DNA of 28,682 nucleotides from Elusimicrobia bacterium RIFOXYB2_FULL_48_7 (GTDB taxonomy: Bacteria > Elusimicrobiota > Endomicrobiia > CG1-02-37-114 > XYA2-FULL-39-19): assembly GCA_001800495.1 (NCBI GenBank), contig MGVM01000088.1, positions 12,311 through 40,992 of the forward strand. The letters are read 5' to 3'. A program made the position numbers and the translations under genes. How positions within the stretch are numbered: position 1 is the first letter of the stretch; each line of letters starts with the position of its first letter. Of this stretch, positions 2,891 through 24,120 are shown piece by piece. The notes below the pieces were generated by a model. It searched no databases and had not been told where the DNA came from. It was given only the letters and a program-made list of their open reading frames with translations.

Positions 2891-3361
2891 GTGGCTTGGG
2901 TGAGGAGCAAAAGTTTTACTGAGGATCGCGGCATTTACATGAACTCGACGCTTGTCGACAAAGTCGTAAAGAACAAGCTTGAGGAGATATGGGTTTCCGC
3001 CCTGCGCAACAACCTGGTGGACATCAGGATCTATTTTTATTTCCCGAACCAGCCCGAACCAAAACCGACAAAGAAAGGCATATGGATTTCCTTCAAGCAC
3101 ATCCCGAAACTTATCCAGGCGTTTGAGAAACTGATTGCCAACCCTGAAGCGCTGGTGGACGTGGAGCTTAAAAGCGATAAAAAATCGCAGTTAAGAACCT
3201 ACAGCGCTAAATACGATAATAAAAATCTTGTGCATATCCGCCAATTTTACCTGAAGGCCGGGGAGTTTGCTCCTGGCAGGGGCATAGCTTTCCCGCTTGA
3301 CGTGCTTCCGCGGATGATCGAAGCCCTGAAAAAAGCCGCCCCCCTCGACGGAAAGGTCTAG
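2891..3361 (+). CDS. Protein with two tandem PC4/p15 (YdbC-like) ssDNA-binding domains
   Basis: Two PC4-like motifs: VDIRIYFYF..PKPTKKGIWISF..IPKL and VHIRQFYL..GEFAPGRGIAFPL..LPRM. GTG start with GGAG RBS at 2881. Confidence 0.75.
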   Translation: MAWVRSKSFTEDRGIYMNSTLVDKVVKNKLEEIWVSALRNNLVDIRIYFYFPNQPEPKPTKKGIWISFKHIPKLIQAFEKLIANPEALVDVELKSDKKSQLRTYSAKYDNKNLVHIRQFYLKAGEFAPGRGIAFPLDVLPRMIEALKKAAPLDGKV

Positions 3362-3387: not shown

Positions 3388-4116
3388 ATGAAAAAACTTT
3401 TAACCGCTGTGATTTTTGCCGCCATTTCTTTTGTAAACGCTTACCCTGCTGAAACCAGCCTTGACCACATCCTGAAACAGGCGGGGCTGCGGCAGGAAAA
3501 AATAGAGAAAGGCGTCGTTGACATGAATTTCACCGCCAACACCGCCTTCCTGCAGAAAAATACCGAAGGCAAAACCGAAAAAAAGATAAACAGCTCGAGG
3601 GTTGTCTACCAGAAACAGCCGGATATATTAATTGAAAAATATTCCTCTATGGAAATAGACGGCAAGGCACTAACCGCGAATGAACTGGACAAAGAAACCA
3701 AGAAAAGGCAGAAACGCACCGACAGGAGGCAGTCCAAGTCACCCTTCAGCCCTTCAATGAAGGATTCGTACGCCCATGCCCTTTCAGGCGAAACGGAATT
3801 TGAAGGCCGGAGCGCCTGGGTTGTAAGTTTTACCCCTAAAGAAAAGAAGGAAACATTTATTGAGGGTAAAGCATACATCTCAAAGAAGGATTTCAGCGTG
3901 CTCGGGATGGATTTTGTCCCCGCGGTCCTACCGCCTGTCATAAAAGCCATGAAAATGAGTATGTCTATGGCCCCGGTGGATGGATACTGGCTGCCCGCAA
4001 AATTCCGGATGGAAATAACGCTGAAAATAACGTTTATTTTCACCCTTGCCGACAAACGCATCGAGATAGAGGAAACCTACTCGGACTATAAGCTGAATAC
4101 GCCCAAAAACCAATAA
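3388..4116 (+). CDS. Secreted LolA-like / outer-membrane lipoprotein-sorting fold protein
   Basis: Signal peptide MKKLLTAVIFAAISFVNA, then the beta-rich segment 'FEGRSAWVVSFTPK...EGKAYISKKDFSVLGMD' characteristic of LolA/MucB-like folds. Confidence 0.55.
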   Translation: MKKLLTAVIFAAISFVNAYPAETSLDHILKQAGLRQEKIEKGVVDMNFTANTAFLQKNTEGKTEKKINSSRVVYQKQPDILIEKYSSMEIDGKALTANELDKETKKRQKRTDRRQSKSPFSPSMKDSYAHALSGETEFEGRSAWVVSFTPKEKKETFIEGKAYISKKDFSVLGMDFVPAVLPPVIKAMKMSMSMAPVDGYWLPAKFRMEITLKITFIFTLADKRIEIEETYSDYKLNTPKNQ

Positions 4117-4127
4117 GGTAGCATTAG

Positions 4128-4156
4128 TTGATTATTTCCATAAATTAATGTATATA
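4128..4156 (+). promoter_or_regulatory. Putative sigma70 promoter for the isomerase-IMPase-LbH operon
   Basis: TTGATT (4128-4133), 17-nt spacer, TATATA (4151-4156), in an AT-rich intergenic region. Confidence 0.4.
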
Positions 4157-4197
4157 TATTGATAATTTAGTAAATATTTAAAAATTTATAGGAGGAT

Positions 4198-4232
4198 TAC
4201 CCCATACTCTTCCTAGCGAGTAGAATGGGGTA
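4198..4232 (+). repeat. Bulged-hairpin repeat, copy 1 (TACCCCAT-ACTC-TTCCTAGC-GAGT-AGA-ATGGGGTA)
   Basis: 8-bp outer stem, 4-bp inner stem, 8-nt loop and 3-nt bulge. Related copies at 18675-18709 and 24073-24106. Confidence 0.75.
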
Positions 4233-4248
4233 TCCACAAGGAGAGAAC

Positions 4249-5085
4249 ATGAAGTATTCAGTTTTCACAGTCAGCCTTCCGACACTTAAGCCGGAAAGAA
4301 TCGTGCAGGAGTTCAAAAAAATGGGCCTTGACGGCGTAGAATGGAGAGTACACGAGGCATTCCATTTCAAGCCGGAAGAGCTTGAAAAAAACGCGGCTTA
4401 CATAAAGAAACTCACAGCCGACGCCGGGCTCGGGATTTCCAACGTCGCCACATACACAAAGATTACCGAGCTGGACCTGAGCAAAAGCCTTATAGCCGCC
4501 ACCGCGGCCATGGGCGCGCCGTCCCTGCGCCTGGGCATGCTCTGGTATGAAAAATCCAACACCGCCTACAACAAACTCTACAAGGAAGCCAAGGACACCA
4601 TTGAAAAACTCGTGCCTGTCCTCAAACAGCACAAGGTAAAACTGGTGTTTGAGCTTCACCATGAATCAATAACCCCGTCAGCCAGCGCGCTTTATTCGCT
4701 GATAAAGGATTACCCGCCTGAAGTTGTCGGCGCGCTTTACGACCCCGCGAATATGATAGTTGAAGGTTACGAGGCCTTTGCGTTCGACCTGCTGGGGCCC
4801 TACGTCGCGCACGTGCACGCCAAAGATGTAATGTTCGTTAAGGACGACAAGGGAAAATGGGGCAGAAAATGGATGGTTTTGGGCGATGGCATGGCAAACT
4901 GGACCAATATTTTCACCGCGCTGGACAAAATCAACTACAAGGGCTACATCTCATCGGAAAACATAACCATAGGCGGATTGAAGGAAACGATGAAAGAAGA
5001 GGAACACCAGAAATTCTGCCTTGAAACGATCACGAAAGAAATTTCTTTCCTGAAAAAAGCGGAAAAAGAAACCTTAGGGAAATAA
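4249..5085 (+). CDS. Sugar phosphate isomerase/epimerase (xylose-isomerase-like TIM barrel, AP endonuclease 2 family)
   Basis: Metal-binding motifs ELHHES, YDPANM, HVHAKD and SSEN. Start set at ATG 4249 with AGGAG RBS at 4239. Confidence 0.88.
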   Translation: MKYSVFTVSLPTLKPERIVQEFKKMGLDGVEWRVHEAFHFKPEELEKNAAYIKKLTADAGLGISNVATYTKITELDLSKSLIAATAAMGAPSLRLGMLWYEKSNTAYNKLYKEAKDTIEKLVPVLKQHKVKLVFELHHESITPSASALYSLIKDYPPEVVGALYDPANMIVEGYEAFAFDLLGPYVAHVHAKDVMFVKDDKGKWGRKWMVLGDGMANWTNIFTALDKINYKGYISSENITIGGLKETMKEEEHQKFCLETITKEISFLKKAEKETLGK

Positions 5086-5111
5086 AAGGATATTTAAAAA
5101 GGAGCGATTAA

Positions 5112-6029
5112 ATGGACATTTTTGAAAAACGGCTGAAGAATTTTGCAAAAGAAGGCGAACTTACAGCGTTCAACCTGGCGATGGTCGCCGAGGCGCTGGA
5201 CACGGTTGAAGAACTAAAAAGAAAAAACATCGGCGGCGAGATAGTTGAAAAAAGGATGGCTGAGGAATACAAAACCTGGGACCCCGACATTTTCAAGGTT
5301 GACAAGGACACGGAAAACGGGTTCCGGCGCAGACTGGAAGCGAAAAACAAGCCCTACGTCCTGCTTTCCGAAGAAGTTGAACGCCTTGAGATCAACAAGG
5401 ACAAGCCCGGCGAACTGCAATATGTCGTGGCCGACCCCTTTGACGGGAGCATCCTGTTCAAGAAAGGCATACCGGATTTCTGGTACAGCTCCCTTGCTTT
5501 TTATGACAAAAACATCAAGCCGCTTACCAGCGCAGTGGGCGACTGTATAATGAAAACGCTCACCTTCGCCAATGAAAAAGGCGCTTTCGGCTCGGTGCTT
5601 GAAGGCGACAATATCGTGCACAAATTCAAACTTGACGCCGCGTACAGGGAAAAGATGGGCAGGAAAAATGTTACAGAGCTCAAGGACGCCAGCCTGGAAT
5701 CCTACGCGCTCAAGCCGGGAAAATTTCTGCTTCCTTTGATAGACAATTACAGGGAAGTCGTCAAGAATTTCAAGTTTTTCATCCCCAACGGCGGGCCTTA
5801 CGGCTTTGTTGACGTGGCGGAAGGAAAAATTGACGTTTACTTCGCCACCAAGCAGCCGTTCGTTGACGTGTTTTCCGGCATTTACATAGCCGAGCAGGCG
5901 GGAGCGGTGGTGACGGATTTCAACGGCAACAAGGTCAACTGCGTGGACAACGTGCACGGGATGTTCGACGTGCTGGTCTCAACAAACGAAGAACTGCACA
6001 AAAAAGTGCTTGAAAAAATAAAAAAATAA
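5112..6029 (+). CDS. Inositol monophosphatase / FBPase (FIG superfamily) protein
   Basis: LLSEE, VADPFDGS (DPxDG motif), and 'VAEGKIDVY...FVDVFSGIYIAEQAGAVVTDFNG'. GGAG RBS. Confidence 0.88.
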   Translation: MDIFEKRLKNFAKEGELTAFNLAMVAEALDTVEELKRKNIGGEIVEKRMAEEYKTWDPDIFKVDKDTENGFRRRLEAKNKPYVLLSEEVERLEINKDKPGELQYVVADPFDGSILFKKGIPDFWYSSLAFYDKNIKPLTSAVGDCIMKTLTFANEKGAFGSVLEGDNIVHKFKLDAAYREKMGRKNVTELKDASLESYALKPGKFLLPLIDNYREVVKNFKFFIPNGGPYGFVDVAEGKIDVYFATKQPFVDVFSGIYIAEQAGAVVTDFNGNKVNCVDNVHGMFDVLVSTNEELHKKVLEKIKK

Positions 6030-6044
6030 ACGGAGGGAGCTGAC

Positions 6045-6995
6045 ATGGAAGTACTCAAAGTAAAAGACTTAAAGAAGGAAGATGTACCCAAGGAAATGAG
6101 GGTTGAAAGTTATTTCGACCTCAAGGCGCACCCGTTCAAGCACGAAGCGCTTCTAACGGGCGAAGGCGTGAATTCAGTGGTCAGCGTTATAGGCAAAATA
6201 GGCAGTTATTCGAAGAAATGGATCGCCGACACCATAAGCGAAAACCTGAAAAAGAACCCGGTGCTGAAAGTCCAGAAGAGCTTTGACAAGATCAACACCC
6301 ACGGCCATTTTGAAGTAATACTTGAAGAAGGCGCGGTTTTCTCCCCATCGTGCATTTTCGGGTCAAAAGACGCTGGAAAAGCTGGTAAGCTATACGTTTC
6401 CAAAAACGCGGTAGTATTCGGAAGCGACATCTACCTGGATGAAGGCGATATTTTCATAGATGAAGGCGCGGTTATTGAAGCAAGCGCCGGCTTGAAAGGG
6501 CCCACCATCATAGGCAAGAAAACCAGCGTCCGTGAAGGCGCGTACCTGCGCGGCAACGTTATAATCGGCGACGGCGCTGTTATCAGGGGCGAGCTGAAGA
6601 ACGTGCTCATACTGGACAAGGGCAACTTCCCCCACCCGTCATACCTGGGAGATAGCATCTGCGGCTATATGTCGCATTTCGGCAACCAGGTCACTGCGGC
6701 GAACCTCGGCATTTATGAGGGCTTGAAAGACGCTGACAAGAGAACAAACCTTGTTTTCCGGCTTGGCGGCAAATCATACGACATCGGCACCCCGAAAATG
6801 GGCGTAGTTGCCGGAGATTTCTGCCAGATCGGCTGTTCTTCAACGACAGACCCGGGAACTTTCCTTATGCCGCATACTATTTCTTACACGCTTACCAGGA
6901 TCAGCAAGGGTTTTTATGGCCCCAATGAAATCCTGAAAAACAAGGCACTTGAGAAAGGCATCATTGAAAGGTCTCCTTTCAATCCGAATAAATGA
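6045..6995 (+). CDS. Stand-alone left-handed beta-helix (hexapeptide) transferase, similar to the C-terminal domain of archaeal-type GlmU/sugar-1-phosphate acetyltransferases
   Basis: Hexapeptide repeats 'LKGPTIIGKKTSVREGAYLRGNVIIGDGAVI' and 'HPSYLGDSICG...FGNQVTAAN...KMGVVAGDFCQIG'. No N-terminal nucleotidyltransferase motif. Confidence 0.75.
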   Translation: MEVLKVKDLKKEDVPKEMRVESYFDLKAHPFKHEALLTGEGVNSVVSVIGKIGSYSKKWIADTISENLKKNPVLKVQKSFDKINTHGHFEVILEEGAVFSPSCIFGSKDAGKAGKLYVSKNAVVFGSDIYLDEGDIFIDEGAVIEASAGLKGPTIIGKKTSVREGAYLRGNVIIGDGAVIRGELKNVLILDKGNFPHPSYLGDSICGYMSHFGNQVTAANLGIYEGLKDADKRTNLVFRLGGKSYDIGTPKMGVVAGDFCQIGCSSTTDPGTFLMPHTISYTLTRISKGFYGPNEILKNKALEKGIIERSPFNPNK

Positions 6996-7010
6996 CCGGA
7001 GGAAACACCA

Positions 7011-9284
7011 ATGCAATACCAGATTAAAAGCGATGATAAGTCAGTTGACCTAATCGGCAAGTCGTACAAACTGCATTTCACCCTTAACGATTCCCAAACC
7101 ATGGGCCTTGAAGTCTACAACGACGGCCTTCTGATGGGAAAGACCCGCTACTTCGGGAAAATAATCCTGAAACCAGAGGGCGCCATGCCGCCGGTATCAG
7201 GCACGGACGCCATTGAAGGAAAAAATGTGGAAATGATCGCATCCCGCGCGAGAGTCATCAACGACTGCCCCGAAAATCCTTACATAGAAATCGAGCTAAC
7301 TCACCCGAAAGCCAAGGGGTACATCCAGTTTTTCCCGGTTGACGGCAACAACATAGACATCAACGTGAAAGTCAGCGTAACATACCCGAAAACATCCAAC
7401 ATGGGTTTCGTGATGTTCTGCCTTGACTGCCAGACGCCTTCCGAAAGGGTGCGCCTGATGCCCGGGCCTTATTCCGGATGGAACCAGGACGGCAAAAGCC
7501 TGGTGATCTACCCCAGGTTTTTCCGCTCGCTTTACCGCCAGTTCACAATGATAAAGCACTACATAGTCAAAGAACCCAAGTCCATACTGTCATCGCACCA
7601 GGGAATGGTGTTCTCATACCCGGAAGGTATGCTGGGCGCCCTCACGGAGCTTGATTTCGGCACGGAAGTCGCCGGAAGCTGGCGCGTAGAACTGGGCAAC
7701 GATGACGTTTGGGACCCGGTCCTGCTTGAAAAAGCCGACAAGTTCGCACCGCCGGACCCGGGAATCCAGTACCCGCGCTACGATTTCGACAGGTACCTGG
7801 ACAACTGGCGCGTATTCATGAAACGCCCGGAACTTTTCGTTGAACTGGGCGACGGCATGGGATTTTTCCACCGCGGCTATCACAGAGTGCTAAAAGGTTT
7901 AATGCTTCCCTGCGGAGCGCACCCGTTCAAGGGATTTTTCCGCGACACGGAAGCCAAGTCAAGAAAGTCACGGCTCTGCGAATTATCTTGGGGCGGAAGC
8001 GCGAACTGCCTGCTTGCCTACACCCTTTACCTGACCGGCGAGGAATGGGCAAAAAAGAAAGCGGACGAGATCGTAAAAGCCACCGTTGAATTCAAGGACG
8101 GCGGCTATATGATAAAGGAAGGCCCCGTAAAAGGCGCCTGGTGGAACGGATACCTGGTTGACGAAGACCGTTTCTGCGACCGCTTTGCCAGCGATAACCT
8201 CTACACGCCGGACTGCGGCATCACAAATTATTTCTTCGGCAAAATATTGCTTGAAAAACACGCAAAGAACGACAAACTTCTCAAGATGATAGAAACCAAC
8301 TGCGATTACCTGAAACGCATAGAGTTCAAGGACGGCGGCATACCCTTCGGGTTCAAACCCGACGGCAAACCCTGCCTCGACAGGCATTCCCTGGAATACA
8401 AGGGCGACTACGCGGTGCCGTCGGCATTCGCGGCTATATCGCACCTCATCTGCTGGCAGCTCACAGGTAACGCTGAAAGAAAAAAAGACGCAAAACGTTT
8501 GCTTGACCACCTGCTGATGCACGTTGAAAAGAACAACTGGCGCTTCCACGGTTACGATACTTACAGCGCCAACAGCCAGGGGCTTGGATGGATACTTGCG
8601 ATACTGGGCGAATTCGTGATGGCTGGCTTCGCTGAAGCCAAGGCGCCTGCGGAAAAGTCATTCAGGGCGCTTTTAAGTTTCCAGCATTCCTACGACACCG
8701 GCATAGACAGGCACGCTAACCACCTGACCAGGCCTTCAGGCGGAAAGATGAAGAACCGCGGTACTTTCCCCACGGGCTCAAGCCGCCATTACATGCAGGA
8801 TTACAACACCGGCCACAACCGGTTCGACCCTGCGCTGGGCCTTCACAACTACTACAAGGCCACCGGCGACCCGAGAGGATACGCTTCGCTTCTGAACTTC
8901 CTAAACAACCTCACATACCACCAGTGGACAAATTCCGACGCCAACATCGGCTTCGGCGCCACCAGTGAAAGAATAAGCTTCAACGACGGCGATTTCAACG
9001 ACCAGGTGCAGACACAGCATTCAAACCCGCTCCAGCAGCTGCTTTTGAACCAGGGGCTTTTCCTGCTCGGCGCAGGCGTGGATATCGCGAAGATCACGCT
9101 CGGCAAGGAACTGGAATTCACTCTTAAAAACCCGGCGCCCACGGCCACCTGGATAATGATAGGCGGCAACAAAGGCAAACCGGTCTGCGTGACAAGCGGC
9201 GGCAAGAAGGTTTATGCCGGCCCCGCTTCCTACATCCCGGTCCAGGTAGACAAAGAAACCACCTTCAAGGTGACAACGATATAG
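7011..9284 (+). CDS. Large hypothetical protein, probable beta-sandwich plus (alpha/alpha)-toroid glycosidase/lyase-like fold
   Basis: 757-aa ORF with a GGAGG RBS and codon style like its neighbours. Beta-rich N-terminus is followed by Trp/Tyr/Asp/His-rich helical repeats. The fold call is inference. Confidence 0.6.
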   Translation: MQYQIKSDDKSVDLIGKSYKLHFTLNDSQTMGLEVYNDGLLMGKTRYFGKIILKPEGAMPPVSGTDAIEGKNVEMIASRARVINDCPENPYIEIELTHPKAKGYIQFFPVDGNNIDINVKVSVTYPKTSNMGFVMFCLDCQTPSERVRLMPGPYSGWNQDGKSLVIYPRFFRSLYRQFTMIKHYIVKEPKSILSSHQGMVFSYPEGMLGALTELDFGTEVAGSWRVELGNDDVWDPVLLEKADKFAPPDPGIQYPRYDFDRYLDNWRVFMKRPELFVELGDGMGFFHRGYHRVLKGLMLPCGAHPFKGFFRDTEAKSRKSRLCELSWGGSANCLLAYTLYLTGEEWAKKKADEIVKATVEFKDGGYMIKEGPVKGAWWNGYLVDEDRFCDRFASDNLYTPDCGITNYFFGKILLEKHAKNDKLLKMIETNCDYLKRIEFKDGGIPFGFKPDGKPCLDRHSLEYKGDYAVPSAFAAISHLICWQLTGNAERKKDAKRLLDHLLMHVEKNNWRFHGYDTYSANSQGLGWILAILGEFVMAGFAEAKAPAEKSFRALLSFQHSYDTGIDRHANHLTRPSGGKMKNRGTFPTGSSRHYMQDYNTGHNRFDPALGLHNYYKATGDPRGYASLLNFLNNLTYHQWTNSDANIGFGATSERISFNDGDFNDQVQTQHSNPLQQLLLNQGLFLLGAGVDIAKITLGKELEFTLKNPAPTATWIMIGGNKGKPVCVTSGGKKVYAGPASYIPVQVDKETTFKVTTI

Positions 9285-9310
9285 TAGCGGTTTGATTTAT
9301 CAAACCCTAC
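9284..9310 (+). repeat. GTAG-type REP palindrome (GTAG-CGGTTTGAT-TT-ATCAAACC-CTAC)
   Basis: GTAG...CTAC ends, 8-bp stem and ATTTAT centre, overlapping the stop of 7011..9284. Confidence 0.7.
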
Positions 9311-9322
9311 CCCCAAAAACAC

Positions 9323-9356
9323 AAAAAACCGCAGCTTCATCACTGCGGTTTTTTTA
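9323..9356. terminator. Bidirectional intrinsic terminator
   Basis: AAAAAACCGCAG-cttcatca-CTGCGGTTTTTTT, located between convergent genes. Confidence 0.85.
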
Positions 9357-9359
9357 TTC

Positions 9360-9379
9360 CGGGGACACAATACTCAATT
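9360..9379 (+). repeat. GGGGAC-type repeat, copy 1 (CGGGGACACAATACTCAATT)
   Basis: First 13 nt are identical to 15501-15513 and both copies end in AATT. Confidence 0.55.
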
Positions 9380-9380
9380 A

Positions 9381-9557
9381 TTATTTCTTCTCAAGCTTAT
9401 TGTATTGTCCTTTTGTTATAAATATTCTCTTATGAAAAGGTTCTTCCAGTTTTTGTGCCAACATGTCCCTTTGGCCGTAATCCCAATTAATGATTCTTCG
9501 TGTTTTTAAATCTAAATCGATAAAATATCTGGTATTCTTATCTTCTTTTTTTCTCAT
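9381..9557 (-). CDS. Small hypothetical protein (58 aa, below the ORF-track cutoff)
   Basis: MRKKEDKNTRYFIDLDLKTRRIINWDYGQRDMLAQKLEEPFHKRIFITKGQYNKLEKK*. It fills the gap up to the terminator and has protein-like composition. No SD seen. Confidence 0.6.
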   Translation of the reverse strand: MRKKEDKNTRYFIDLDLKTRRIINWDYGQRDMLAQKLEEPFHKRIFITKGQYNKLEKK

Positions 9558-9693
9558 TATTGTATACCGGTGTCAGACGAACCGATGTCAGGTTCGACTA
9601 ACTTGACTTACAACGGCTAACACTGATAATCATTCTACCGCTTTTGGGATGGATTTTCAAGGCAGGTGACAACAAAAAATCGTAGCAGGTGGG

Positions 9694-9894
9694 TTATCTT
9701 TTTCCGTAGGAAATGACTTTTTTTACCGAATTGTCTGCTTTTATGCCTTTAAGGGCGAAGATCCTTCTTCTTATCATATTTAGCGCATTTATTCTTTGCC
9801 CGGGTGTCATAGCGAGCGATTCTTCCAGTGAAGCTTTGTCTGCTTCTTCAAATGAACTGAAATATTTTACTGTTACTTTTCTAACCCTCGCCAT
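9694..9894 (-). CDS. Small basic protein coupled to the nucleotidyltransferase (antitoxin-like)
   Basis: 66 aa with 'FSSFEEAD...LAMTPGQRINALNMIRRR'. ATG lies 1 nt after the NTase stop. Confidence 0.7.
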   Translation of the reverse strand: MARVRKVTVKYFSSFEEADKASLEESLAMTPGQRINALNMIRRRIFALKGIKADNSVKKVISYGKR

Positions 9895-9895
9895 A

Positions 9896-10402
9896 TTACT
9901 TACCCTTTTTGCTTTTCGCGGCTTTTAATGTTTTGTAATCCGTTGAATCAGAACCCTGCTTTCTTCCCCGGCGCGGCAATTTACTTAATATTTCCTTATT
10001 TTTAATAAGTTCATCAATTCCAATATAATACGCTGTCAGGTCGCCGTATTTTCCCCTGATGCGGTGTTTCATTATCTCGCTGTCTTTCAAGCCGGTCAGG
10101 CCGTTGAGAAGTTCTATTTGGTTAGGTTCAACCCCTATGCGCAATATAACCGTCTTTTCGGTGTCAAAATAACCTTCGTCAATCCGCAAGCCGGCGAATT
10201 CCCTGATCGCGGCGGCAACTTTCTCTGAATTTCCTTTTGTATGCGCGATGTAAAAATCGATATCCCTTGTAGCCCTGGGTTCCGAATAAAACGTCACGGC
10301 ATAAGCCCCGGTTATGCAATAATCAACTTTGTGCTTGTTCAGCAGTTCAATAAAATCCCTGAAATCTTCCCTGTTTTGGTTGTTATTTGCCCCGTTTTTC
10401 AT
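9896..10402 (-). CDS. Minimal Pol-beta-superfamily nucleotidyltransferase (DUF6036-like)
   Basis: 'DFRDFIELLNKHKVDYCITGAYAVTFYSEPRATRDIDF' gives a G(A/G) motif plus DxD. Start is ATG 10402 or TTG 10405. Confidence 0.8.
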   Translation of the reverse strand: MKNGANNNQNREDFRDFIELLNKHKVDYCITGAYAVTFYSEPRATRDIDFYIAHTKGNSEKVAAAIREFAGLRIDEGYFDTEKTVILRIGVEPNQIELLNGLTGLKDSEIMKHRIRGKYGDLTAYYIGIDELIKNKEILSKLPRRGRKQGSDSTDYKTLKAAKSKKGK

Positions 10403-10409
10403 CAATAAA

Positions 10410-10438
10410 ATTATACATAATTAGGTATTAGTATACAA
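10410..10438 (-). promoter_or_regulatory. Putative sigma70 promoter for the NTase pair (near-leaderless)
   Basis: TTGTAT (10438-10433), 17-nt spacer, TATAAT (10415-10410), then 7 nt to ATG 10402. Confidence 0.6.
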
Positions 10439-10463
10439 CATTCAATTTTCAGAATTCCTTCAA

Positions 10464-10492
10464 TTGACCGGGGGGCAATAAATATGTAAAAT
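10464..10492 (+). promoter_or_regulatory. Putative sigma70 promoter for the GH3 gene
   Basis: TTGACC (10464-10469), 17-nt spacer, TAAAAT (10487-10492). Confidence 0.55.
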
Positions 10493-10529
10493 ACCCGATA
10501 CATAGCCATAATACAGACACAAAAACACC

Positions 10530-10550
10530 GCCCATAAATGGGCAACTACA
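10530..10550 (-). repeat. GTAG-type REP family A (minus strand TGTAGTTGCCCATTTATGGGC)
   Basis: Variant of the 12284 and 15528 copies with a compensatory C-G/G-C swap in the stem. Confidence 0.75.
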
Positions 10551-10563
10551 GAGAGGCCACAAC

Positions 10564-12279
10564 ATGGAAAAAACAAACAAGTTCGTGAAGGATCTTATCT
10601 CAAAAATGACGCTGGACCAGAAGGTCGGCGCTACGCTGACGCTTGGCTTTACCGGCACCATGATAACACCGGATATTTATGACCAGGTTACCAAGTACCA
10701 CTGCGGCGGGCTCCGGCTCACCCCTTCCACCCGGCTTTTCCGCGACTACGTTGACCCAAAGACCGGCGAAGTGCTGGTAAAAATAGACAATATCAAGGGC
10801 TACAAGAAAAGTTTCAACTACGCCCCATACGTAACCCCGGCGCAATACAGGGACATACTGATGGAACTGCAGGACCTCGCGATGAAGCGCCCCGGCGGCA
10901 TCCCGCTTCACTTCTGCATCGACCAGGAAGGCGGAGCCAGGGTAAATTATAACTTCGGCGGCGTGGCTATGTTCCCCAAGCAGATGGGCCTGGTTGCTGT
11001 CGACGACCCGAAAATCGCTTACGAAGTGGCGCGCGCTAAATGCAAACAGTGCGGCCCCGTGGGTTTCAACTGGATACATTCCCCCCTGCTTGATATCAAC
11101 GTGAACCCGGATAATCCGGAGATAAACACCCGCGCATACTCCGACAATGTGGATGTTGTCACCGAATATGCGATACAGGAATGCAAAGGCTTCAAGGACG
11201 GAGGGATAATCGCCACCGGAAAGCATTTCCCCGGCGTGGGTGACACCGCCAGCGGCGCGCATTTTGAAGTCCAGCAGGTCAACGTGGACAAAGACACAAT
11301 GCTGAAAAGGGATCTGCTTCCCTACCGCGAACTGATAAAACTCAACCTGCTTCCTTCAATAATGCTGGCGCACAGCATATTCCCGGCATTTGATGAAAAA
11401 GACCTAGCGACTTTATCAAAACCAATCATCACCGGGCTTTTAAGGGAGCAGATGGGCTTTGAAGGCGTAGTAACCACCGACAGCATGACGATGTACAGCA
11501 TAGCGAGCAGATACGGCGGCATCCCCAACGGCTGCGCGATGGCGCTGGCCGCAGGCGCGGACCTTGTGCTGATGAAAGCCGAAAACCAGCTTGTGCCCGA
11601 GACCTTCAACGCGATAAAGAAGTATGTTGAAGAAGGAAAGATAAGCGAAAAAGACCTGGATGACAAGGTTTACAGGATACTCAGCATGAAGCATGCCTAC
11701 GGGTTGTTCAAGAACGGCAAAGTTTCCAGCGCCGACCCGGATGAAGCCGCTAAAGACAAAAAAATAGCCGCGCTTGCCCAGAAGGTTGCCCAGCGCTCCA
11801 CGATAGTTGCCCGCGACAGGAAAAAGATCCTGCCCCTGCCAAAAGACGGCAAGACGCTGGTGATAGAGCAGATGCTCACTACCGCCAACGACGTTTACTG
11901 GCACCCCAGCCTGCTTTTTAAGAAATGCCTGCAGCGCAACAAGAACACCCGCCTGCTGGAAATCGGTTTCAAGCCGGACGAAGCCGACAAGGCGGCGGTC
12001 AAGCGCCTTACAGAAGAGTTTGATACTATAATTGTAACGAACTATTTCAAGAACGGCACCTCCAACGCCGCCATGGTGAAAGAGATAGCCGCGAACAAGA
12101 ACAAAAAAGTCGTTGTTTTAGCCGATACCCCCTACAAGCTGAGCATACCGGACGAGATAGACACCTGCGTGGTTATTTTCGGCCCGTCGCCTTCCACATT
12201 GGAAGCCGCGGTCGGAGTGATATTCGGCGAGATAAAAGCCGAAGGCAAATGGCCGGTAGAGTACAAGATTAACCCGTAA
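10564..12279 (+). CDS. Glycoside hydrolase family 3 (beta-N-acetylhexosaminidase/NagZ-like, two-domain)
   Basis: CIDQEGG, SPLLDINVNPDNPEINTRAYS, KHFPGVG, and nucleophile region GVVTTDSMTM. C-terminal GH3_C-like domain present. Confidence 0.92.
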   Translation: MEKTNKFVKDLISKMTLDQKVGATLTLGFTGTMITPDIYDQVTKYHCGGLRLTPSTRLFRDYVDPKTGEVLVKIDNIKGYKKSFNYAPYVTPAQYRDILMELQDLAMKRPGGIPLHFCIDQEGGARVNYNFGGVAMFPKQMGLVAVDDPKIAYEVARAKCKQCGPVGFNWIHSPLLDINVNPDNPEINTRAYSDNVDVVTEYAIQECKGFKDGGIIATGKHFPGVGDTASGAHFEVQQVNVDKDTMLKRDLLPYRELIKLNLLPSIMLAHSIFPAFDEKDLATLSKPIITGLLREQMGFEGVVTTDSMTMYSIASRYGGIPNGCAMALAAGADLVLMKAENQLVPETFNAIKKYVEEGKISEKDLDDKVYRILSMKHAYGLFKNGKVSSADPDEAAKDKKIAALAQKVAQRSTIVARDRKKILPLPKDGKTLVIEQMLTTANDVYWHPSLLFKKCLQRNKNTRLLEIGFKPDEADKAAVKRLTEEFDTIIVTNYFKNGTSNAAMVKEIAANKNKKVVVLADTPYKLSIPDEIDTCVVIFGPSPSTLEAAVGVIFGEIKAEGKWPVEYKINP

Positions 12280-12283
12280 AATC

Positions 12284-12305
12284 GCCGATGAATCGGCAAC
12301 TACAA
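12284..12305 (-). repeat. GTAG-type REP family A (plus strand GCCGATGAATCGGCAACTACAA)
   Basis: 22-nt exact match to 15528-15549, with hairpin GCCGAT/ATCGGC, 4 nt after the GH3 stop. Confidence 0.85.
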
Positions 12306-12314
12306 AACAATATA

Positions 12315-12338
12315 GATTCCCGCTTTCGCGGGAATGAC
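12315..12338. repeat. dRS3-like / CGTC-type REP (GATTCCCGCTTTCGCGGGAATGAC)
   Basis: Matches the ATTCCC-N8-GGGAAT consensus of Neisseria dRS3, followed by GAC. Confidence 0.8.
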
Positions 12339-12348
12339 AATCGTTTTT

Positions 12349-13662
12349 ATGTTCAAAAAACTTACCAAGAACCTGGAAGCATACCTGGACATATCCAATC
12401 TCATAGATACTTCCAAGATGAGCCTGAATAACGCAAGGTACCTGCAGGTGCTGGTTTGCCTGCTGTTGTTTTTCACCGCGTTCAACTACATTTCAAACGG
12501 CATTTTCGGGCAGTACCTGAGCAAAACCTACGATTACGAGCTTATCTACAACGCCGGCAAAAAGATAGTCGACGGCAACGCTAACAAGATATACGACGAG
12601 TTCCTCTCGTATGGCCCGGACAAAAGCAGTTTGATGTTTATGTACCCCGCCGTGCCGGGCATTGTTTTCGCGCCACTGAGCCTGTTTGAATACAATACCG
12701 CGAAGTTTATAATGCTGCTGCTCACGCAGGCGTTCGTGCTGATTTCTTTTCTGCTGTTACTGCGAAACCTCGGCCCCTCTCTGCCACGGCTTGAAAAGAT
12801 CATTATGTTCTTCATGTTCTTTAATTATTACCCTTCCTTTCTCTGTTTTTATATGGGGCAGAGCGAATTTTTCCTGCTTGCGTTTTTCTGCCTGTTCTTT
12901 TACCATTTCCAGAAAGGCAACGATATCCGCTCCGCATTTTTCCTGTCGCTGGTGATCTATTTCAAGATATTCCCCATATTTTTCCTGCTTTATTTCCTAT
13001 GGAAGAAGGAATACAGGTATTCCGGGATACTTTTTGCGATGCTTTCCGTGATGGGCCTGCTGTCTCTGCTGGTGGTCGATTTCCAGACCCAGAAACAGTA
13101 TTTCCTGCACATTCTGCCGTTCCAGGCGCTGGATTCATACCCCGACCACCAGTGCATAACCGGGTTTTTCTCAAGGATATTCACCTCCAGCCAGTTCACC
13201 GCGGGATGGATCCACAACAACTTCCTCAAGGACCTGTTTGTCTATTCCACTACCGCCCTTGTGCTGTTTTTCACCGCAAAAGCCACCCGCCAGAAACTGA
13301 ACCGCGGCGATGAAAGGTACAAATACGAGTTCTCGATCCTTATCGTCATAATGCTCCTGCTTTCAAGGATAACCGACACCCATCATTTTGTTTTTCTGCT
13401 CATACCGTTCTCATACCTGTTAAAGTATTACCTTTCCAAGAACAAAATTGACGAGCGGGCCGCGCGCGACACGAGTATAATGATTTTCTGCTACGCCGTC
13501 CTGGCCACTTACGTGCCCATAATCCACAGGAAATACGACTGGGATGTATTCGCGGTTTTCATGCAGGGGATTCCCATACTTGTGTTATCCGTCCAGTTTT
13601 ACGTCCTGGTCATTTTCTGGCTCTTGTGCCTGCGCCAGTTGAACAATTTAAATCATGAATAA
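12349..13662 (+). CDS. GT87/DUF2029-like GT-C membrane glycosyltransferase
   Basis: 'DYELIYNAG...FMYPAVPGIVFAPL...GQSEFFLL...IYFKIFPIFFLLYFLWKK...DHQCITGFFSR' in a polytopic hydrophobic protein. Start could be 12334 (inside the repeat) or 12349. Confidence 0.8.
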   Translation: MFKKLTKNLEAYLDISNLIDTSKMSLNNARYLQVLVCLLLFFTAFNYISNGIFGQYLSKTYDYELIYNAGKKIVDGNANKIYDEFLSYGPDKSSLMFMYPAVPGIVFAPLSLFEYNTAKFIMLLLTQAFVLISFLLLLRNLGPSLPRLEKIIMFFMFFNYYPSFLCFYMGQSEFFLLAFFCLFFYHFQKGNDIRSAFFLSLVIYFKIFPIFFLLYFLWKKEYRYSGILFAMLSVMGLLSLLVVDFQTQKQYFLHILPFQALDSYPDHQCITGFFSRIFTSSQFTAGWIHNNFLKDLFVYSTTALVLFFTAKATRQKLNRGDERYKYEFSILIVIMLLLSRITDTHHFVFLLIPFSYLLKYYLSKNKIDERAARDTSIMIFCYAVLATYVPIIHRKYDWDVFAVFMQGIPILVLSVQFYVLVIFWLLCLRQLNNLNHE

Positions 13663-14071
13663 AATATTAAAGATAATTTCCCCTTTGGTTTTCATTACTT
13701 GGCTCATTTTTTTCTGCGTGGGCCTGCCCGCCAGGATACAGACCATCAAACAGGAACTCAGTATTACAAAATCAATGGACGATGAACAGAAAAGAACGCT
13801 GCTATACGGAGATTTTTACAAGTTTATCCAGTCCTGCAAGGCGCAGATACCGGAAAATGCGGTTGTTTTTTTGGTTTCCGACAGTATTTTTGAATATTAC
13901 TACGGCTCGTACTATTTATACCCGCGGAAAGTGCTGGTGAACGAGCCGGACAAAAAGATTGACGGGCTTTCAAACAACAAACCCGTGAACCTGACAGAGG
14001 AATTCTGCCTGAAAAACAATATTTCCTATGTTATAGTGCCAAGATTATCCAAAATAGTAAAAGTAAAATAA
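13655..14071 (+). CDS. Hypothetical membrane-anchored protein
   Basis: N-terminal TM segment and 'YYYGSYYLYPRKV' motif. Overlaps the upstream stop, suggesting translational coupling. Confidence 0.7.
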   Translation: MNKILKIISPLVFITWLIFFCVGLPARIQTIKQELSITKSMDDEQKRTLLYGDFYKFIQSCKAQIPENAVVFLVSDSIFEYYYGSYYLYPRKVLVNEPDKKIDGLSNNKPVNLTEEFCLKNNISYVIVPRLSKIVKVK

Positions 14072-14074
14072 CTT

Positions 14075-15535
14075 ATGAACCTGATTATCGCATATCTTGC
14101 CATCTTTTTGCTTCTTGCCGCCGGGTTCATGCTGACGGTCCTTATCACCGGCGACAAGATCACGCTCAAGGCGGAACTCTATGCGGTTTCTTTCGGCCTG
14201 GGAACCGGGCTGGTGTTCCTGGAAATGTTCATCGCCTCCTGGTACGGCATCCACCTCACCACGAAATTGTTTTACATTGCCTTGTTCGTTAATATCGTCC
14301 TGCTCTACATTTTTTCCGCGAAAAAACTGCATAAACGCAAGCTGTCGCTTGTTCTCATGAAAAAAAAGACGCAGAAGTTCGGGTTTGTTGAGGTGTTTTT
14401 AATCCTGGTGATCATTTTCAACATCGCCCTGACCCTGGTTGACGCGCTCGCCCTGCCGATGAAAGACTGGGACGCTGTCGCCATATGGAGCTATAAGGCA
14501 AAAATAATATATTATGAATCCATAAAAAGCGCCGGTTATTTCACTGACCCGACAAAAAGTTATTCGCACCCTGACTACCCGCTTATGGTGCCGTTCATGC
14601 AGGCGTATATCTATACGGCCATCGGGCACGTTGACGACAGGCTTGCGCGGCTGATTTTCTTTTCCTACTATTTTTTCCTGCTGTTATTCGTGTATTCGCT
14701 GATGAGCAAGTCCATCGCGCGCAACCATGCCCTTTTCTTCACCGCGCTTTTCGCGACTCTTCCCGCTCTTTTGAACGAATCGGTTTCCGGTTACTCGGAC
14801 CTGCCGCTGGCATTTTACTACTTTCCCATGGCTGCTTACCTATACCTGTTTATCAAGGAAGGCCGCAGTGAACACCTGGCGCTTTCAGCGGTATTTTCAG
14901 CGCTGTGCGTGTTCGCAAAGAACGAAGGGATGGCCCTGCTCCTGATAAACCTGGCGGTTCTGGCGGGTTTCTTTTTCTCTAAAAGCAGGGAGGGCGTTCC
15001 GGCTTTGCACGGCGCTGACCGGAAAGAACTGAAGAAGCCCTACAAACTGCGCCAATTATTTTATTATACGGCGGCCGTGCTTCTGATCATATCCCCCTGG
15101 CTCATTTTCCGCAGGAATATAACCGTGATACAGGAAGATTATTTTTCGCAGCTCAATTTGCAGGTAATTATCGGTAATTTACCAAGGATTCCCCTGATAC
15201 TTTCGTCATTTGTCACGGAATTCGCCGATTTTAAAAGCTGGAACATACTCTGGATAATCCTTGTGGTTCTCGCGCTTTTCAACATTGAGCACCTGCTTCA
15301 AAAACCTCTTGTATTTCTGAACGTGTTGTTCCTGGCGCACCTCTGCCTCTATGTAATAATCTATGTGATAACCCCCTGGGAACCGCAAATACTGATCAAG
15401 ACCACCATTTCCCGGCTTTTGATCCACCTCGCCCCCATTGCGGTATTCCTGTGCGCCGAGCTGTTCAGTTCCGGCACTCGGTACTTCACTGTTTCCAATT
15501 CGGGGACACAATATTTAATTCAAAATAGCCGATGA
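14075..15535 (+). CDS. ArnT/PMT-like (GT-C) membrane glycosyltransferase
   Basis: 'MKDWDAVAIWSYKAKIIY...SHPDYPLMVP...GYSDLPLAFY...AKNEGM' in a polytopic protein. Confidence 0.75.
   Translation: MNLIIAYLAIFLLLAAGFMLTVLITGDKITLKAELYAVSFGLGTGLVFLEMFIASWYGIHLTTKLFYIALFVNIVLLYIFSAKKLHKRKLSLVLMKKKTQKFGFVEVFLILVIIFNIALTLVDALALPMKDWDAVAIWSYKAKIIYYESIKSAGYFTDPTKSYSHPDYPLMVPFMQAYIYTAIGHVDDRLARLIFFSYYFFLLLFVYSLMSKSIARNHALFFTALFATLPALLNESVSGYSDLPLAFYYFPMAAYLYLFIKEGRSEHLALSAVFSALCVFAKNEGMALLLINLAVLAGFFFSKSREGVPALHGADRKELKKPYKLRQLFYYTAAVLLIISPWLIFRRNITVIQEDYFSQLNLQVIIGNLPRIPLILSSFVTEFADFKSWNILWIILVVLALFNIEHLLQKPLVFLNVLFLAHLCLYVIIYVITPWEPQILIKTTISRLLIHLAPIAVFLCAELFSSGTRYFTVSNSGTQYLIQNSR
15501..15520 (+). 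repeat. GGGGAC-type repeat, copy 2 (CGGGGACACAATATTTAATT)
   Basis: 18/20 identical to 9360-9379. Lies inside the 3' end of 14075..15535. Confidence 0.55.
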
Positions 15536-15549
15536 ATCGGCAACTACAA
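15528..15549 (-). repeat. GTAG-type REP family A
   Basis: Exact 22-nt match to 12284-12305. Contains the TGA of the upstream gene and the first base of the next ATG. Confidence 0.85.
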
Positions 15550-17294
15550 TGGAATTAAAATATATATTTTCTTTCCTTGGCGTTTATACTATTCTTGTAA
15601 TGCCCGGGATAATGCTGGCTTATTGCCTGTTCAGGGACAGGGAGCTCAAGGAGATATTCCTGCTCGGGAACACGCTGGGGCTGGCGCTGGCGATTTTCAC
15701 CGGTTACTTCGCCTGCATGGCCGGGCTTGCCCGCATAAATTATTTCGTTTACGTCCTGGGCGCGCAATACGTTGTTTCTATCTCCCTGTTCCTGTCCGCG
15801 CTGAAAAGCAAACCGTCTTTCAAGCTGCCCGGCGCGTCATCCTTTCCGCTTATCTTTCTTTGCCTGGTTGTCTTTGTTTCCAGGCTTATACCGCTGTTTT
15901 ATACACAGTTTCCCCGCGGGTGGGACCCGTCTTTCCACTGCATAATAGCCCAAAAACTACTGATAACAGGTATCCTTCCTGACAACTGGATGCCGTTTGA
16001 ACCCTCAGCCATGAATTACACTATGGGCAGCCACATCCTGCTGGCGCTGGTTTCAAAGTTCACCGGGATACCTGTGCACCAGGCGTTCAAACTGTTTTAC
16101 CCTTTCCTCGCGGTGCTGGCCGCGCTGGGAATTTACTGCCTCGCGTTGTATTTTACTGATAACCGTAAAATCAGCGTTCTGAGTTTTGTTTCGTATTCTT
16201 TCCTTGCCAACTGGGGAAGCGTGGATTATTACAACTGGGGCGGGCTGCCTAACATGTTCGGCATGCTTTTCCTGCTGGTTATTCTTTTGTTGGTGCTCAA
16301 ACAACCGGCCGGCACGGGCAGGGTAAAAAACATTCTTATAGGAAGCATATTGCTGTCCGCCGTGTACCTCACGCACCATTTGAGCGCAGTGGTGATAATC
16401 TCCCTGTTCTCTTTCTACGCGCTGCTGGGCCTTATCCGCTCCGGAAAACTTGATAAGACATCAAGCGCATTTATTTTTATCACGCTATTGTCTCTTGTCC
16501 TGTCCTTCATCCCGCTGCTGCCGTTCATTTCAAAAGTTGGCACTATCACATCAACAACCGCGCTGAAGTATTTCGACGAGCCGATGATCCTGCCGCACAC
16601 CGCGCTGAAAAATGTGGGGATGCTTTTGTCTGCGCTTGCTATTACAGGCATTTATCTTGTTTTCCGTGAGAAACGTATGGGTGAAGCCGGGAGGTTTTTC
16701 CTTGTTTACTGGGCGGCGGAGCTTTTGGCTGTATATTTCTGCCTTGATTATGTTTACAGGGCGTTCACGATGCTGATTTTCAAGGAAAATTTCACGGCGT
16801 TCACGCCTTCAAGGTTCCTGACGGACATGGCGTACCCGCTTTCAATATTTTCCGCGGTGTGCTTATACAAGGTTCTTGAAAAAATAAAGTTTAAAGGAAG
16901 TTTTGCCTTAATTGTAGCGGCAATGGTCATGTACGGTTCGCCCGCGATAAAAAACCAGTGCGGACCTGACCGTTTCGCCCCAAAGGACGCCGCCGGTTAT
17001 GAATGGATGGGAAAAAATACGCCTGAAGGCGGGGTGCTGCTTGTATGGGATTACTGGGCGCCTTATATCGCCTGGAGGGAAACTTTATACACGCCGCTGC
17101 CTTCTTCCGAAAACAGGGCCAATGAGTATTCGCTGGATAAACTTAAGGTGGAAAATTTCGACAGCGCAAGGGCCTGGCTGAACAAGTACGGCCGCAAGGG
17201 CTACCTGCCGCTTGACGCTTCTGTAAAACCTGACCTGAACGCTGTCAGGTTAACCGCGCAGCTTGATAATTTGTGTTTGTACGAAGTGAAATAA
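15549..17294 (+). CDS. Polytopic GT-C-like membrane protein (DUF6541/DUF6044-like)
   Basis: 'PRGWDPSFHCIIAQ...NYTMGSHILLA...WGGLPNMFG...LTHHLS...FTPSRF' followed by a C-terminal soluble domain. Confidence 0.65.
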   Translation: MELKYIFSFLGVYTILVMPGIMLAYCLFRDRELKEIFLLGNTLGLALAIFTGYFACMAGLARINYFVYVLGAQYVVSISLFLSALKSKPSFKLPGASSFPLIFLCLVVFVSRLIPLFYTQFPRGWDPSFHCIIAQKLLITGILPDNWMPFEPSAMNYTMGSHILLALVSKFTGIPVHQAFKLFYPFLAVLAALGIYCLALYFTDNRKISVLSFVSYSFLANWGSVDYYNWGGLPNMFGMLFLLVILLLVLKQPAGTGRVKNILIGSILLSAVYLTHHLSAVVIISLFSFYALLGLIRSGKLDKTSSAFIFITLLSLVLSFIPLLPFISKVGTITSTTALKYFDEPMILPHTALKNVGMLLSALAITGIYLVFREKRMGEAGRFFLVYWAAELLAVYFCLDYVYRAFTMLIFKENFTAFTPSRFLTDMAYPLSIFSAVCLYKVLEKIKFKGSFALIVAAMVMYGSPAIKNQCGPDRFAPKDAAGYEWMGKNTPEGGVLLVWDYWAPYIAWRETLYTPLPSSENRANEYSLDKLKVENFDSARAWLNKYGRKGYLPLDASVKPDLNAVRLTAQLDNLCLYEVK

Positions 17295-17310
17295 CACAGG
17301 CAGCAGACGG

Positions 17311-18723
<1,413 letters not shown>

Positions 18724-18781
18724 TCATTTTGCAATCATTGATTTATAGTATTCGGTAATACCTCATTGTACCCACGGACTG

Positions 18782-18811
18782 ATTATATTATATATGTTTT
18801 CTTTATGTCAA
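18782..18811 (-). promoter_or_regulatory. sigma70 promoter for gdhA
   Basis: Consensus TTGACA (18811-18806), 18-nt spacer, TATAAT (18787-18782). Confidence 0.65.
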
Positions 18812-18841
18812 GAATTCGATTTATCCCTCAACCTTTTTTCA

Positions 18842-18871
18842 TTCACAATCCTGGTTAAAGTATGCTATAAT
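18842..18871 (+). promoter_or_regulatory. sigma70 / extended -10 promoter for the GT39 gene
   Basis: TTCACA (18842-18847), 18-nt spacer, TATAAT (18866-18871) preceded by TGc. Confidence 0.55.
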
Positions 18872-18903
18872 ATTTTGCAGGCACAATTTGGGGGCACAAT
18901 AGT

Positions 18904-20943: not shown

Positions 20944-20971
20944 AATTTAGGGGACGGAGTCAGTTTGTCAG
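20943..20971 (+). repeat. RAYT-flanking element copy 1 (TAATTTAGGGGACGGAGTCAGTTTGTCAG)
   Basis: 29-nt exact reverse complement of 24121-24149, and 26-nt exact reverse complement of 21997-22022. Confidence 0.9.
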
Positions 20972-24038: not shown

Positions 24039-24072
24039 AAATTTCCCTTCTATCTCATTCCTTAAACTGACA

Positions 24073-24106: not shown

Positions 24107-24120
24107 TCAAACTCACTAAA

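Follow-up and report, generated by a model that had tools for sequence, protein, structure and literature searches.

A dispersed, sense-oriented hairpin with a Shine-Dalgarno sequence in fixed register in one family of the Elusimicrobiota

Among the small interspersed repeats of bacteria, the Neisseria REP2 element and the Borrelia plasmid IR are dispersed immediately 5' of open reading frames (ORFs), where they form stem-loops and supply the ribosome-binding site (RBS); REP2, which is present in about 26 copies and contains two internal stem-loops, additionally provides a promoter and the ATG to a co-regulated set of genes (PMC3184786). A second related class, the MIRU, comprises repeats of 40-100 bp in operon gaps, which number about 40-50 copies, are part of polycistronic mRNA, occupy filled and empty sites between related species, and contain small ORFs overlapping the flanking stop and start codons, so that translation is coupled (PMC3184786). 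Herein, we analyse a bulged hairpin of 35 nt found in a 28,682-nt stretch of the genome of Elusimicrobia bacterium RIFOXYB2_FULL_48_7 (contig MGVM01000088.1, positions 12,311 to 40,992; termed the window), the first copy of which precedes a gene for a xylose-isomerase-like protein. Together with the Shine-Dalgarno (SD) sequence that follows it, the hairpin forms a cassette that is copied, tied to RBSs, oriented in the sense of the gene, restricted to one family and fast-moving. The window hairpin is accordingly best explained, with a probability of roughly 0.55, as a member of a dispersed family of "hairpin plus Shine-Dalgarno" cassettes that is confined to one lineage.

The element has one principle alone in common with REP2, namely that the repeat supplies the RBS, as its SD stands in fixed register in 57 of 60 copies and filled sites gain an extra SD. 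Unlike REP2, the unit of about 46 nt consists of one bulged hairpin, has neither promoter nor ATG, shows no sequence likeness and lies mostly inside operons; the distance to the ATG varies between 13 and 18 nt, and the promoter of gdhA, which follows the second window copy, lies outside the repeat. MIRUs are co-oriented with the flanking genes, and their tandem copy number varies, which is exploited in MIRU-VNTR typing; in contrast with them, the present element is devoid of a conserved ORF and carries an SD in register instead. Resemblance to the REP/BIME/REPIN-RAYT systems is found in the short imperfect palindrome, the tens to hundreds of copies, the lineage specificity, the master sequence surrounded by compensated variants, and the co-transcription with neighbours. 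However, REPs bear a 5' tag of the GTAG or CGTC type where the 5' flank is here a variable SD-like tract; they are met in both orientations, often as inverted doublets and mostly after genes, whereas at least 55 of 60 copies are here sense before a start codon and the tandems are direct; and they flank their RAYT gene, whereas the Y1 genes of this genome (79% complete as assembled) carry different ends.

Correia elements and ERIC/IRU are palindromes resembling miniature inverted-repeat transposable elements (MITEs), which occur in mRNAs, where the folded repeat alters processing or stability; they measure 100-150 bp, can insert either way round, generating a short, defined target duplication, and have no tie to RBSs. 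In the manner of a MITE, the 8-bp outer stem of our hairpin forms perfect terminal inverted repeats, which is trivially true of any hairpin, but no parent insertion sequence (IS) with the same termini was found in these metagenome-assembled genomes (MAGs), from which IS copies are often missing. The 5' stem-loop stabilisers and STAB-SD sequences (the ompA 5' hairpin, ermC, cryIIIA) combine a stable 5' stem-loop and/or an unused SD-like tract upstream; they resemble the mode of action proposed below, and the unused upstream SD, without implying family membership, and they are single-gene features rather than a copied, sequence-conserved family. Covariation supports the structure as it does for cis-regulatory RNAs of the Rfam type, but there is no family match, and the hairpin is not kept at orthologous or functionally related genes. 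Multi-unit arrays exist as in the CsrB decoys of CsrA/RsmA, from whose binding sites the loop UUCYWAGC differs by the lack of GGA. The element thus belongs to the small interspersed bacterial repeats, among which it is set apart by a single-nucleotide SD register, a strict sense polarity and an RBS-only location; because its sites are not conserved, its sub-families are species-specific and its copies are locked to RBSs, it is neither a classical REP nor a conserved regulon.

Copy number, anatomy and gene context

The genome holding the window (G000) is a 2.2-Mb MAG of 223 contigs, 79% complete, which derives from a groundwater metagenome; G001 denotes a congeneric species and G002 the sister genus of the same family. 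On this genome and its relatives we used a covariance model (R1) derived from alignment A1, which gave 69 copies here, while nhmmer (E < 0.01) gave 54, a loose pattern 44 against 0 in a reversed control, and a structure-only scan, which asks for the loop pattern and for paired arms whatever their sequence, 60, compared with 4 for the reversed genome. The genome therefore contains about 60-70 copies, in front of about 3% of its genes, and the initial annotation, which had taken the motif for a three-copy one, fell far short in scale. According to the covariance model, 54 copies are present in the congeneric species and 17 diverged ones in the only other genus of the family, while 58 further genomes of the same order or class have none. 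A strict pattern retrieved three chance-level matches from 185,579 species genomes and none from viral contigs; in metagenomes it found 83 hairpins on 69 stretches from a small number of samples of groundwater or soil, and 79 of these hairpins share the same start-codon context at a modal distance of 14 nt. The absence of a named motif, as first supposed, holds for Rfam 15, where no model matched at the gathering score or at permissive E-values, the best sub-threshold hit reaching 21 bits of the 53 needed.

The anatomy of the unit rests on 50 full-length copies, whose conserved core consists of the loop UUCYWAGC and its closing C-G pair. The 4-bp inner stem, whose two central pairs accept nearly any Watson-Crick combination, is joined to the 8-bp outer stem across a 3-nt bulge on the 3' side (mostly AAC, AGC, AGA or GGC). 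The stem is followed in fixed register by the flank YYAAnRAGGWR, with GG at +8/+9 in 48-49 of the 50 copies and in 57 of the 60 found by the structure-only scan, and the start codon lies 13-18 nt 3' of the stem. Since the GG register is fixed to the hairpin, the SD core is part of the repeated unit. On the 5' side, an SD-like 4-mer within 16 nt of the hairpin accompanies 76% of the copies, as opposed to 16% of the controls taken at the equivalent distance before hairpin-free genes; this upstream tract is held in a looser register than the downstream SD. In the sister genus the stems are wholly different, but loop and bulge persist, as does the GG at +8/+9, even in arrays without a start codon, so that the conservation of a TTCCnAGC loop and an AGn bulge, first read from the window alone, extends across genera in the form of UUCYWAGC and a 3-nt bulge.

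Several readings of these constant parts were tried and rejected. A conserved mini-ORF AUG-GGG-UAU-UAA in the 3' arm was dismissed, as neither the AUG nor the following UAA is conserved: CTAT/ATAG and CAAT/ATTG variants exist, and YYAA need not read TAA. A T-loop or a K-turn, considered for the loop and the bulge, was discarded because the conserved positions do not fit. As for a pseudoknot between loop and SD, the 7-nt linker looks too short to span a 12-bp stem, and all SDs are purine-rich.

With regard to gene context, 47 of the 60 structure-defined copies are followed by a sense start codon 8-25 nt downstream, 4 more are upstream members of tandem pairs, and none is antisense to the gene that it precedes; the random orientation and position that the initial annotation had named as the mark of a REP were thus not seen. 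The remaining 9 of the 60 are mostly array units bordering an assembly gap, a copy before a tRNA and a copy at a contig end, together with copies having a second small hairpin before the start, one copy without the SD-like GG and one possibly internal to an ORF. Of 54 copies, about 30 occupy operon gaps in which the upstream gene ends at most 25 nt before the hairpin. In the S10/spc ribosomal-protein operon (G000 C202:1-9340), hairpins precede rplB (1998) and rpmC (4675), and two precede rpsH (6788-6869); the gaps that bear them are normally tight and translationally coupled. Other downstream genes are gyrB, recA, serS, glmS, rplM, rpsK, those for L25, gcvH, ptsI, ilvB, argB, and genes for a Pit transporter, a PorV/Q-type protein, alanine dehydrogenase and a Mur ligase (murC-type), in addition to the TIM-barrel isomerase gene and gdhA of the window, and no common functional theme joins them. 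The gene predicts the orientation of the hairpin (at least 55 of 60) better than does the GC skew of the contig (47 of 60, a share no different from that of genes in general), and only 2 of 30 tRNA genes have a copy nearby. Several promoter-proximal copies show, by eye, a TATAAT-like box 7-40 nt upstream, which would place the stem at or near the 5' end of those transcripts.

Direct tandem arrays with a period of 49 nt, i.e., a 35-nt hairpin and a 14-nt linker, also occur, one of which has at least three units in front of a response-regulator gene. At G000 C178:4020-4330 (minus strand), a TTGACA-like box is followed by three tandem units, tRNA-Arg(CCT), a fourth hairpin, which has an SD, and finally a protein-coding gene, so that the tRNA appears embedded in the hairpin array. 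Two paralogous loci of the sister genus (G002 C85:6830-7115 and C12:14770-15030, termed L060 and L036) contain 5-6 alternating units of two stem types; these arrays keep the 49-nt period, stand directly after LacI-type regulator genes, have no start codons and are candidates for a non-coding array.

Turnover of sites and covariation of the stem

Sites were compared for 30 hairpin-bearing genes of the congener that have an orthologue with assembled upstream DNA in this genome. Only 3 of the 30 carry the hairpin in both species, namely rpmC, a gene of 486 aa and a gene of 261 aa, the last with a loop insertion. In metagenome contigs, copies of the same species were common to 26 of 26 sites, while in other species (60-93% protein identity) about 2 of 30 were shared, one detected by automatic scan and the second, a loop-insertion copy, by eye. 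Filled and empty sites differ cleanly by 49-55 nt, corresponding to the hairpin and one extra SD-like tract, and in several alignments the native sequence, including the original SD, reaches the 5' side of the hairpin. One gene of this genome (G000 C106:~1660-1697) keeps only the 3' arm (ATGCGGCA) and the linker TTAAGGGAGG where its congener orthologue has the full hairpin, from which it follows that copies decay by deletion. Given that the sites differ between congeners and that the sub-families are species-specific, copies come and go rapidly in evolutionary terms. Empty sites showed no enrichment of excision footprints (9% against 4.5%, p 0.2).

The flanks bear on how the copies arise. In this genome, the 5' and 3' flanks of a given copy are more alike than cross-paired flanks (5 of 20,000 permutations), and about 5 copies exhibit obvious direct repeats of 10-14 nt that include the SD. 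The fixed-register signal, for which both flanks share a consensus, peaks at an offset of 48 nt (z 3.7), near the 49-nt array period. This pattern fits either an element of about 38 bp with the SD at the centre of a target duplication of about 10-11 bp, or short-homology recombination or template switching that copies an SD-hairpin-SD segment.

Covariation statistics were computed on 29 copies, in which 97.4% of the cells are paired and 8 of the 12 pairs have changed on both sides; none of 500 shuffles reaches the observed score, which collapses in slid registers. The copies of A1 had been chosen by a pattern that fixes CAT/ATG and the loop, so the invariance at these positions is partly circular, and in unbiased sets CAT/ATG covaries too (CTAT/ATAG, CAAT/ATTG, CCGT/ACGG). 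The double compensatory change first noticed between the two window copies is thereby extended to most of the stem, although much of it reflects amplified, species-specific sub-families, so that the cells count copies rather than events: between species, CTTCAT/ATGAAG stands at 5 against 0, CCGCAT/ATGCGG at 6 against 1, and CCCAAT/ATTGGG at 1 against 7. Nevertheless, the hairpins at the three congener-shared sites are well paired in spite of many differences, and bulge and loop have not been "corrected" away; on these grounds, something selects for the shape of the hairpin.

The copies of the window and the neighbouring elements

The first copy lies between an SD-like tract and the isomerase gene, as listed below.

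4190 to 4195, plus strand: upstream SD-like tract AGGAGG, read as a relic of the gene's original RBS
4198 to 4232, plus strand: hairpin copy 1, with an 8-bp outer stem, a 4-bp inner stem, the 8-nt loop UUCCUAGC and the 3-nt 3' bulge AGA
4233 to 4248, plus strand: cassette linker with the presumed working SD (AAGGAGA, 4238-4244; GG at +8/+9, 4240-4241)
4249 to 5085, plus strand: downstream gene, xylose-isomerase-like TIM barrel of 278 aa (PF01261, E 2e-26)

Copy 1 scores 59.9 bits (E 1e-17) with the covariance model. The mechanical ORF list puts the isomerase start at 4225, an in-frame ATG within the 3' arm of the hairpin; the true start is likely 4249, and genes of this kind may be annotated 8 codons too long by automatic procedures. 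No strong promoter match was found upstream of copy 1, which may be operon-internal.

The second copy, on the opposite strand, belongs to the leader of gdhA.

18782 to 18811, minus strand: promoter of the sigma-70 type, matching the consensus at 12/12 positions (consensus match only)
18715 to 18719, minus strand: upstream SD-like GGAGG, read as a relic
18675 to 18709, minus strand: hairpin copy 2, with loop UUCCAAGC, bulge AGC and inner stem AUCC/GGAU
18661 to 18674, minus strand: linker with the presumed working SD (GGGG, 18669-18666), before the gdhA ATG at 18660
17311 to 18660, minus strand: gdhA, 449 aa, downstream of copy 2

Copy 2 scores 63 bits (E 9e-19) and lies about 66 nt into the leader predicted from the 12/12 promoter. 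Orthologues of gdhA from the sister genus (85% identity) and from another family (65%) have no hairpin before them, and because the hairpin is absent from these two outgroups, parsimony suggests that the gdhA copy is a gain. The promoter is one of a back-to-back consensus pair (18782-18871) between gdhA and a divergent gene starting at 18904: a 12/12 match on the minus strand (18811-18782) and, on the plus strand (18842-18871), an 11/12 match that includes the TG of an extended -10.

The two hairpins differ in the loop (TTCCTAGC in copy 1, TTCCAAGC in copy 2) and in the inner stem (ACTC/GAGT against ATCC/GGAT). Each has a folding energy of about -14.7 kcal/mol (z -3.6 and -2.9), the neighbouring SD is unpaired in 80-nt folds of both, and contigs of two DNA runs over window positions 3500-19500 show both hairpins unchanged, with no presence/absence variant of either. 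The initial annotation had read these copies (4198-4232, plus; 18709-18675, minus) correctly to the letter, including the identical outer stems, the two compensated pairs by which the inner stems differ, the ATG 16 nt and 14 nt downstream, respectively, and the GGAGG upstream of both.

A third, degenerate copy adjoins an end of a Y1 transposon.

24070 to 24109, plus strand: degenerate copy 3, located 33 nt before a start at 24039 and antisense to the minus-strand genes on either side
20946 to 20971 and 21997 to 22022: ends of a Y1 transposase element flanked by terminal inverted repeats (TIRs), which are 26-nt perfect inverted repeats
24120 to 24146: solo third copy of the TIR, 2.1 kb away and adjoining degenerate copy 3

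Copy 3 is a weak match (16.4 bits against 60-63 for copies 1 and 2) and probably a decayed or rearranged copy; that it is degenerate, opposite to its genes and beside a transposon end had been recognised from the outset and is confirmed by this score and the solo TIR. The Y1 genes of G000-G002 are flanked by TIRs with GGGGACG-type ends, lack this hairpin and occur too in the hairpin-free relatives G003 and G004; a Y1/RAYT link to the hairpin was therefore rejected, as the ends differ and the distribution of Y1 is wider than that of the hairpin. In the sister genus, one hairpin is located about 200 nt before a TIR-flanked Y1 element and outside it.

Seven hairpin copies of this genome hold a loop insertion of 45-60 nt, which folds as a hairpin of its own with arms CCCTAAA...TTTAGGG. 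Type A is represented at G000 C3:3705-3791, C39:1311-1396 and C65:5633-5720, and type B at C41:8390-8471, C217:2564-2657, C83:6565-6657 and C164:~3200-3300. A partial duplication of the loop letters (TTCCAAGC / AAGC) borders the insertions on either side, and the arm ends of the insertions resemble the TTTAGGGG termini of the TIR-flanked Y1 transposon in the window. These insertions have the appearance of another small element, one with the hairpin loop as its target.

Competing explanations and significance of the cassette

In the preferred explanation, a new copy would land between a gene's own SD and its start codon, and the cassette would bring or duplicate an SD, the old one staying 5' as a relic. 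The hairpin would be transcribed within leaders and operon gaps, and we infer that the carried SD is the one in use. Less certainly, a stable stem-loop at the 5' edge of the RBS might keep the SD single-stranded in the mRNA, insulate the cistron from upstream sequence and translation, and, as a 5' stem-loop can slow decay, stabilise the downstream message.

Several observations weigh against this explanation. A passive insulator does not account for the strict orientation and the conserved loop; a hairpin inserted in reverse would keep SD and stem, yet such copies are essentially absent. The pairs are nearly all Watson-Crick (1020 of 1068 cells, with 10 G-T and 18 A-C or C-A), and the excess of G-U over A-C that marks selection at the RNA level is absent. 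Quasi-palindromes are corrected by template switching of the Ripley type, and the Watson-Crick purity would fit a DNA-level hairpin or such templated correction equally well, for which reason covariation does not prove an RNA function. The flank-duplication signal is not significant in the congener (G001) and is carried by few copies. No copying enzyme was found, nor any segment of 0.3-4 kb bounded by hairpin arms with extended inverted ends, in MAGs that often lack IS copies. Finally, a test of whether the tagged genes have the codon usage of highly expressed ones, based on too small a set of 3 reference genes, gave nothing. The constancy of loop and bulge across genera while every stem position changes, together with the strict polarity, points to the involvement of a trans-acting factor, which may be a copying enzyme or an RNA-binding protein.

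If it were the latter, the hairpins might constitute a post-transcriptional regulon, in which a family-specific RNA-binding protein beside the SD tunes the translation or decay of about 60 mRNAs while the tandem arrays (before the tRNA, before the response-regulator gene and after the LacI-type genes of the sister genus) act as CsrB-like decoys. The maintenance of loop and bulge between genera in spite of variation at all stem positions, the strictly sense orientation at a fixed distance to the SD, the arrays of 3-6 units without start codons, and the well-paired hairpins with many compensated changes at the three congener-shared sites would all be accommodated. Such a regulon is nonetheless unlikely, as the target genes have no common function and the target set is almost wholly different in the congener, unlike known regulons; moreover, no candidate protein was found, the loop without GGA is not a CsrA-type site, and the loop and its complement are not in excess outside hairpins (30 occurrences against 33 expected), on which ground a trans-acting RNA containing either was rejected as well. 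The cis-regulatory leader RNA put forward by the initial annotation has thus fared well in its location, with sense copies in leaders and intercistronic gaps and the SD in fixed register, and poorly as a conserved regulon, since sites turn over and the genes are unrelated. The alternative offered there, an HUH-mobilised REP/PATE family, was right about a dispersed, spreading repeat with lineage-specific sub-families, and is contradicted by the lack of mixed orientation, 5' tag and inverted pairs and by the different Y1 ends. Specifically, a classical REP/REPIN or PATE, moved as a single-stranded DNA hairpin by an HUH Y1 transposase (RAYT/TnpA) and only incidentally close to starts, agrees with a short bulged palindrome in many copies, a master sequence with a cloud of compensated and nearly exclusively Watson-Crick variants, the Y1 transposases encoded in the genome and the conserved YYAA tetranucleotide 3' of the stem. 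It is highly improbable in view of copies that stand sense at RBSs rather than at 3' ends or in mixed orientation, the want of inverted doublets and of a GTAG or CGTC tag, the GGGGACG-type TIRs of Y1 genes that also occur in hairpin-free G003 and G004, and an orientation that obeys the gene rather than GC skew.

Spread without an enzyme is another explanation, according to which the SD-like tracts on both flanks allow copying into other RBSs by short-homology recombination or replication template switching, loss proceeds by slippage between the same direct repeats, and the stem is perfected by templated quasi-palindrome correction. It alone would explain the sense orientation, the RBS-only location, the two-sided AGG register, the 49-nt arrays, the high rate of gain and loss and the missing parent transposase, and the almost purely Watson-Crick pairing is in line with it. 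It is still rather unlikely, because the constant loop and 3-nt bulge across genera are left unexplained and templated correction should erase the bulge; in addition, the homologies span just 5-10 nt and the excision footprints are not enriched. Very doubtful is a processing signal, or "punctuation", at which an endonuclease (RNase P-, E- or Y-like) would cut polycistronic RNA 5' of the hairpin and free downstream cistrons with a protected 5' stem-loop. The stem of 8+4 = 12 bp and the loop beginning with invariant UUC resemble a minihelix of tRNA acceptor and T-arm, the many copies in short operon gaps, including the S10/spc operon, would suit such a signal, and three tandem copies and a fourth flank the tRNA-Arg gene in one transcript-like unit. 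However, the loop, of 8 nt, departs from T-loops by a pyrimidine in place of their purine and by a one-position shift of the invariant A; the bulge interrupts the 3' strand, a CCA-like tail is missing, and few tRNA genes have a copy nearby. Beyond the hairpin-plus-SD cassette as such, a bolder and distinctly doubtful proposal is an RBS-homing element that recognises SDs, e.g., through a pyrimidine loop CUUCC or a CCCC arm complementary to GGAAG/GGAGG, inserts directionally beside them and duplicates the SD, thereby placing a factor-bound structured leader before about 3% of the genes, with the arrays as decoys.

The strong covariation and leader position of this hairpin serve as a caution for the discovery of RNA motifs, as both can stem from a spreading palindrome rather than a conserved regulator. 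If an RBS-homing element were true, it would amount to a new principle by which a mobile element of bacteria finds its targets and, at the same time, to a new post-transcriptional layer of global reach. Small repeats in bacteria tend to be regarded as extragenic passengers, whereas this one is tied to the RBS and yet switches its host genes between sister species. If the role proposed for the cassette holds, a repeat can rewrite translation-initiation regions genome-wide, including those of ribosomal-protein operons, and would constitute a natural, portable "hairpin plus SD" module similar to the RBS insulators designed by synthetic biologists.

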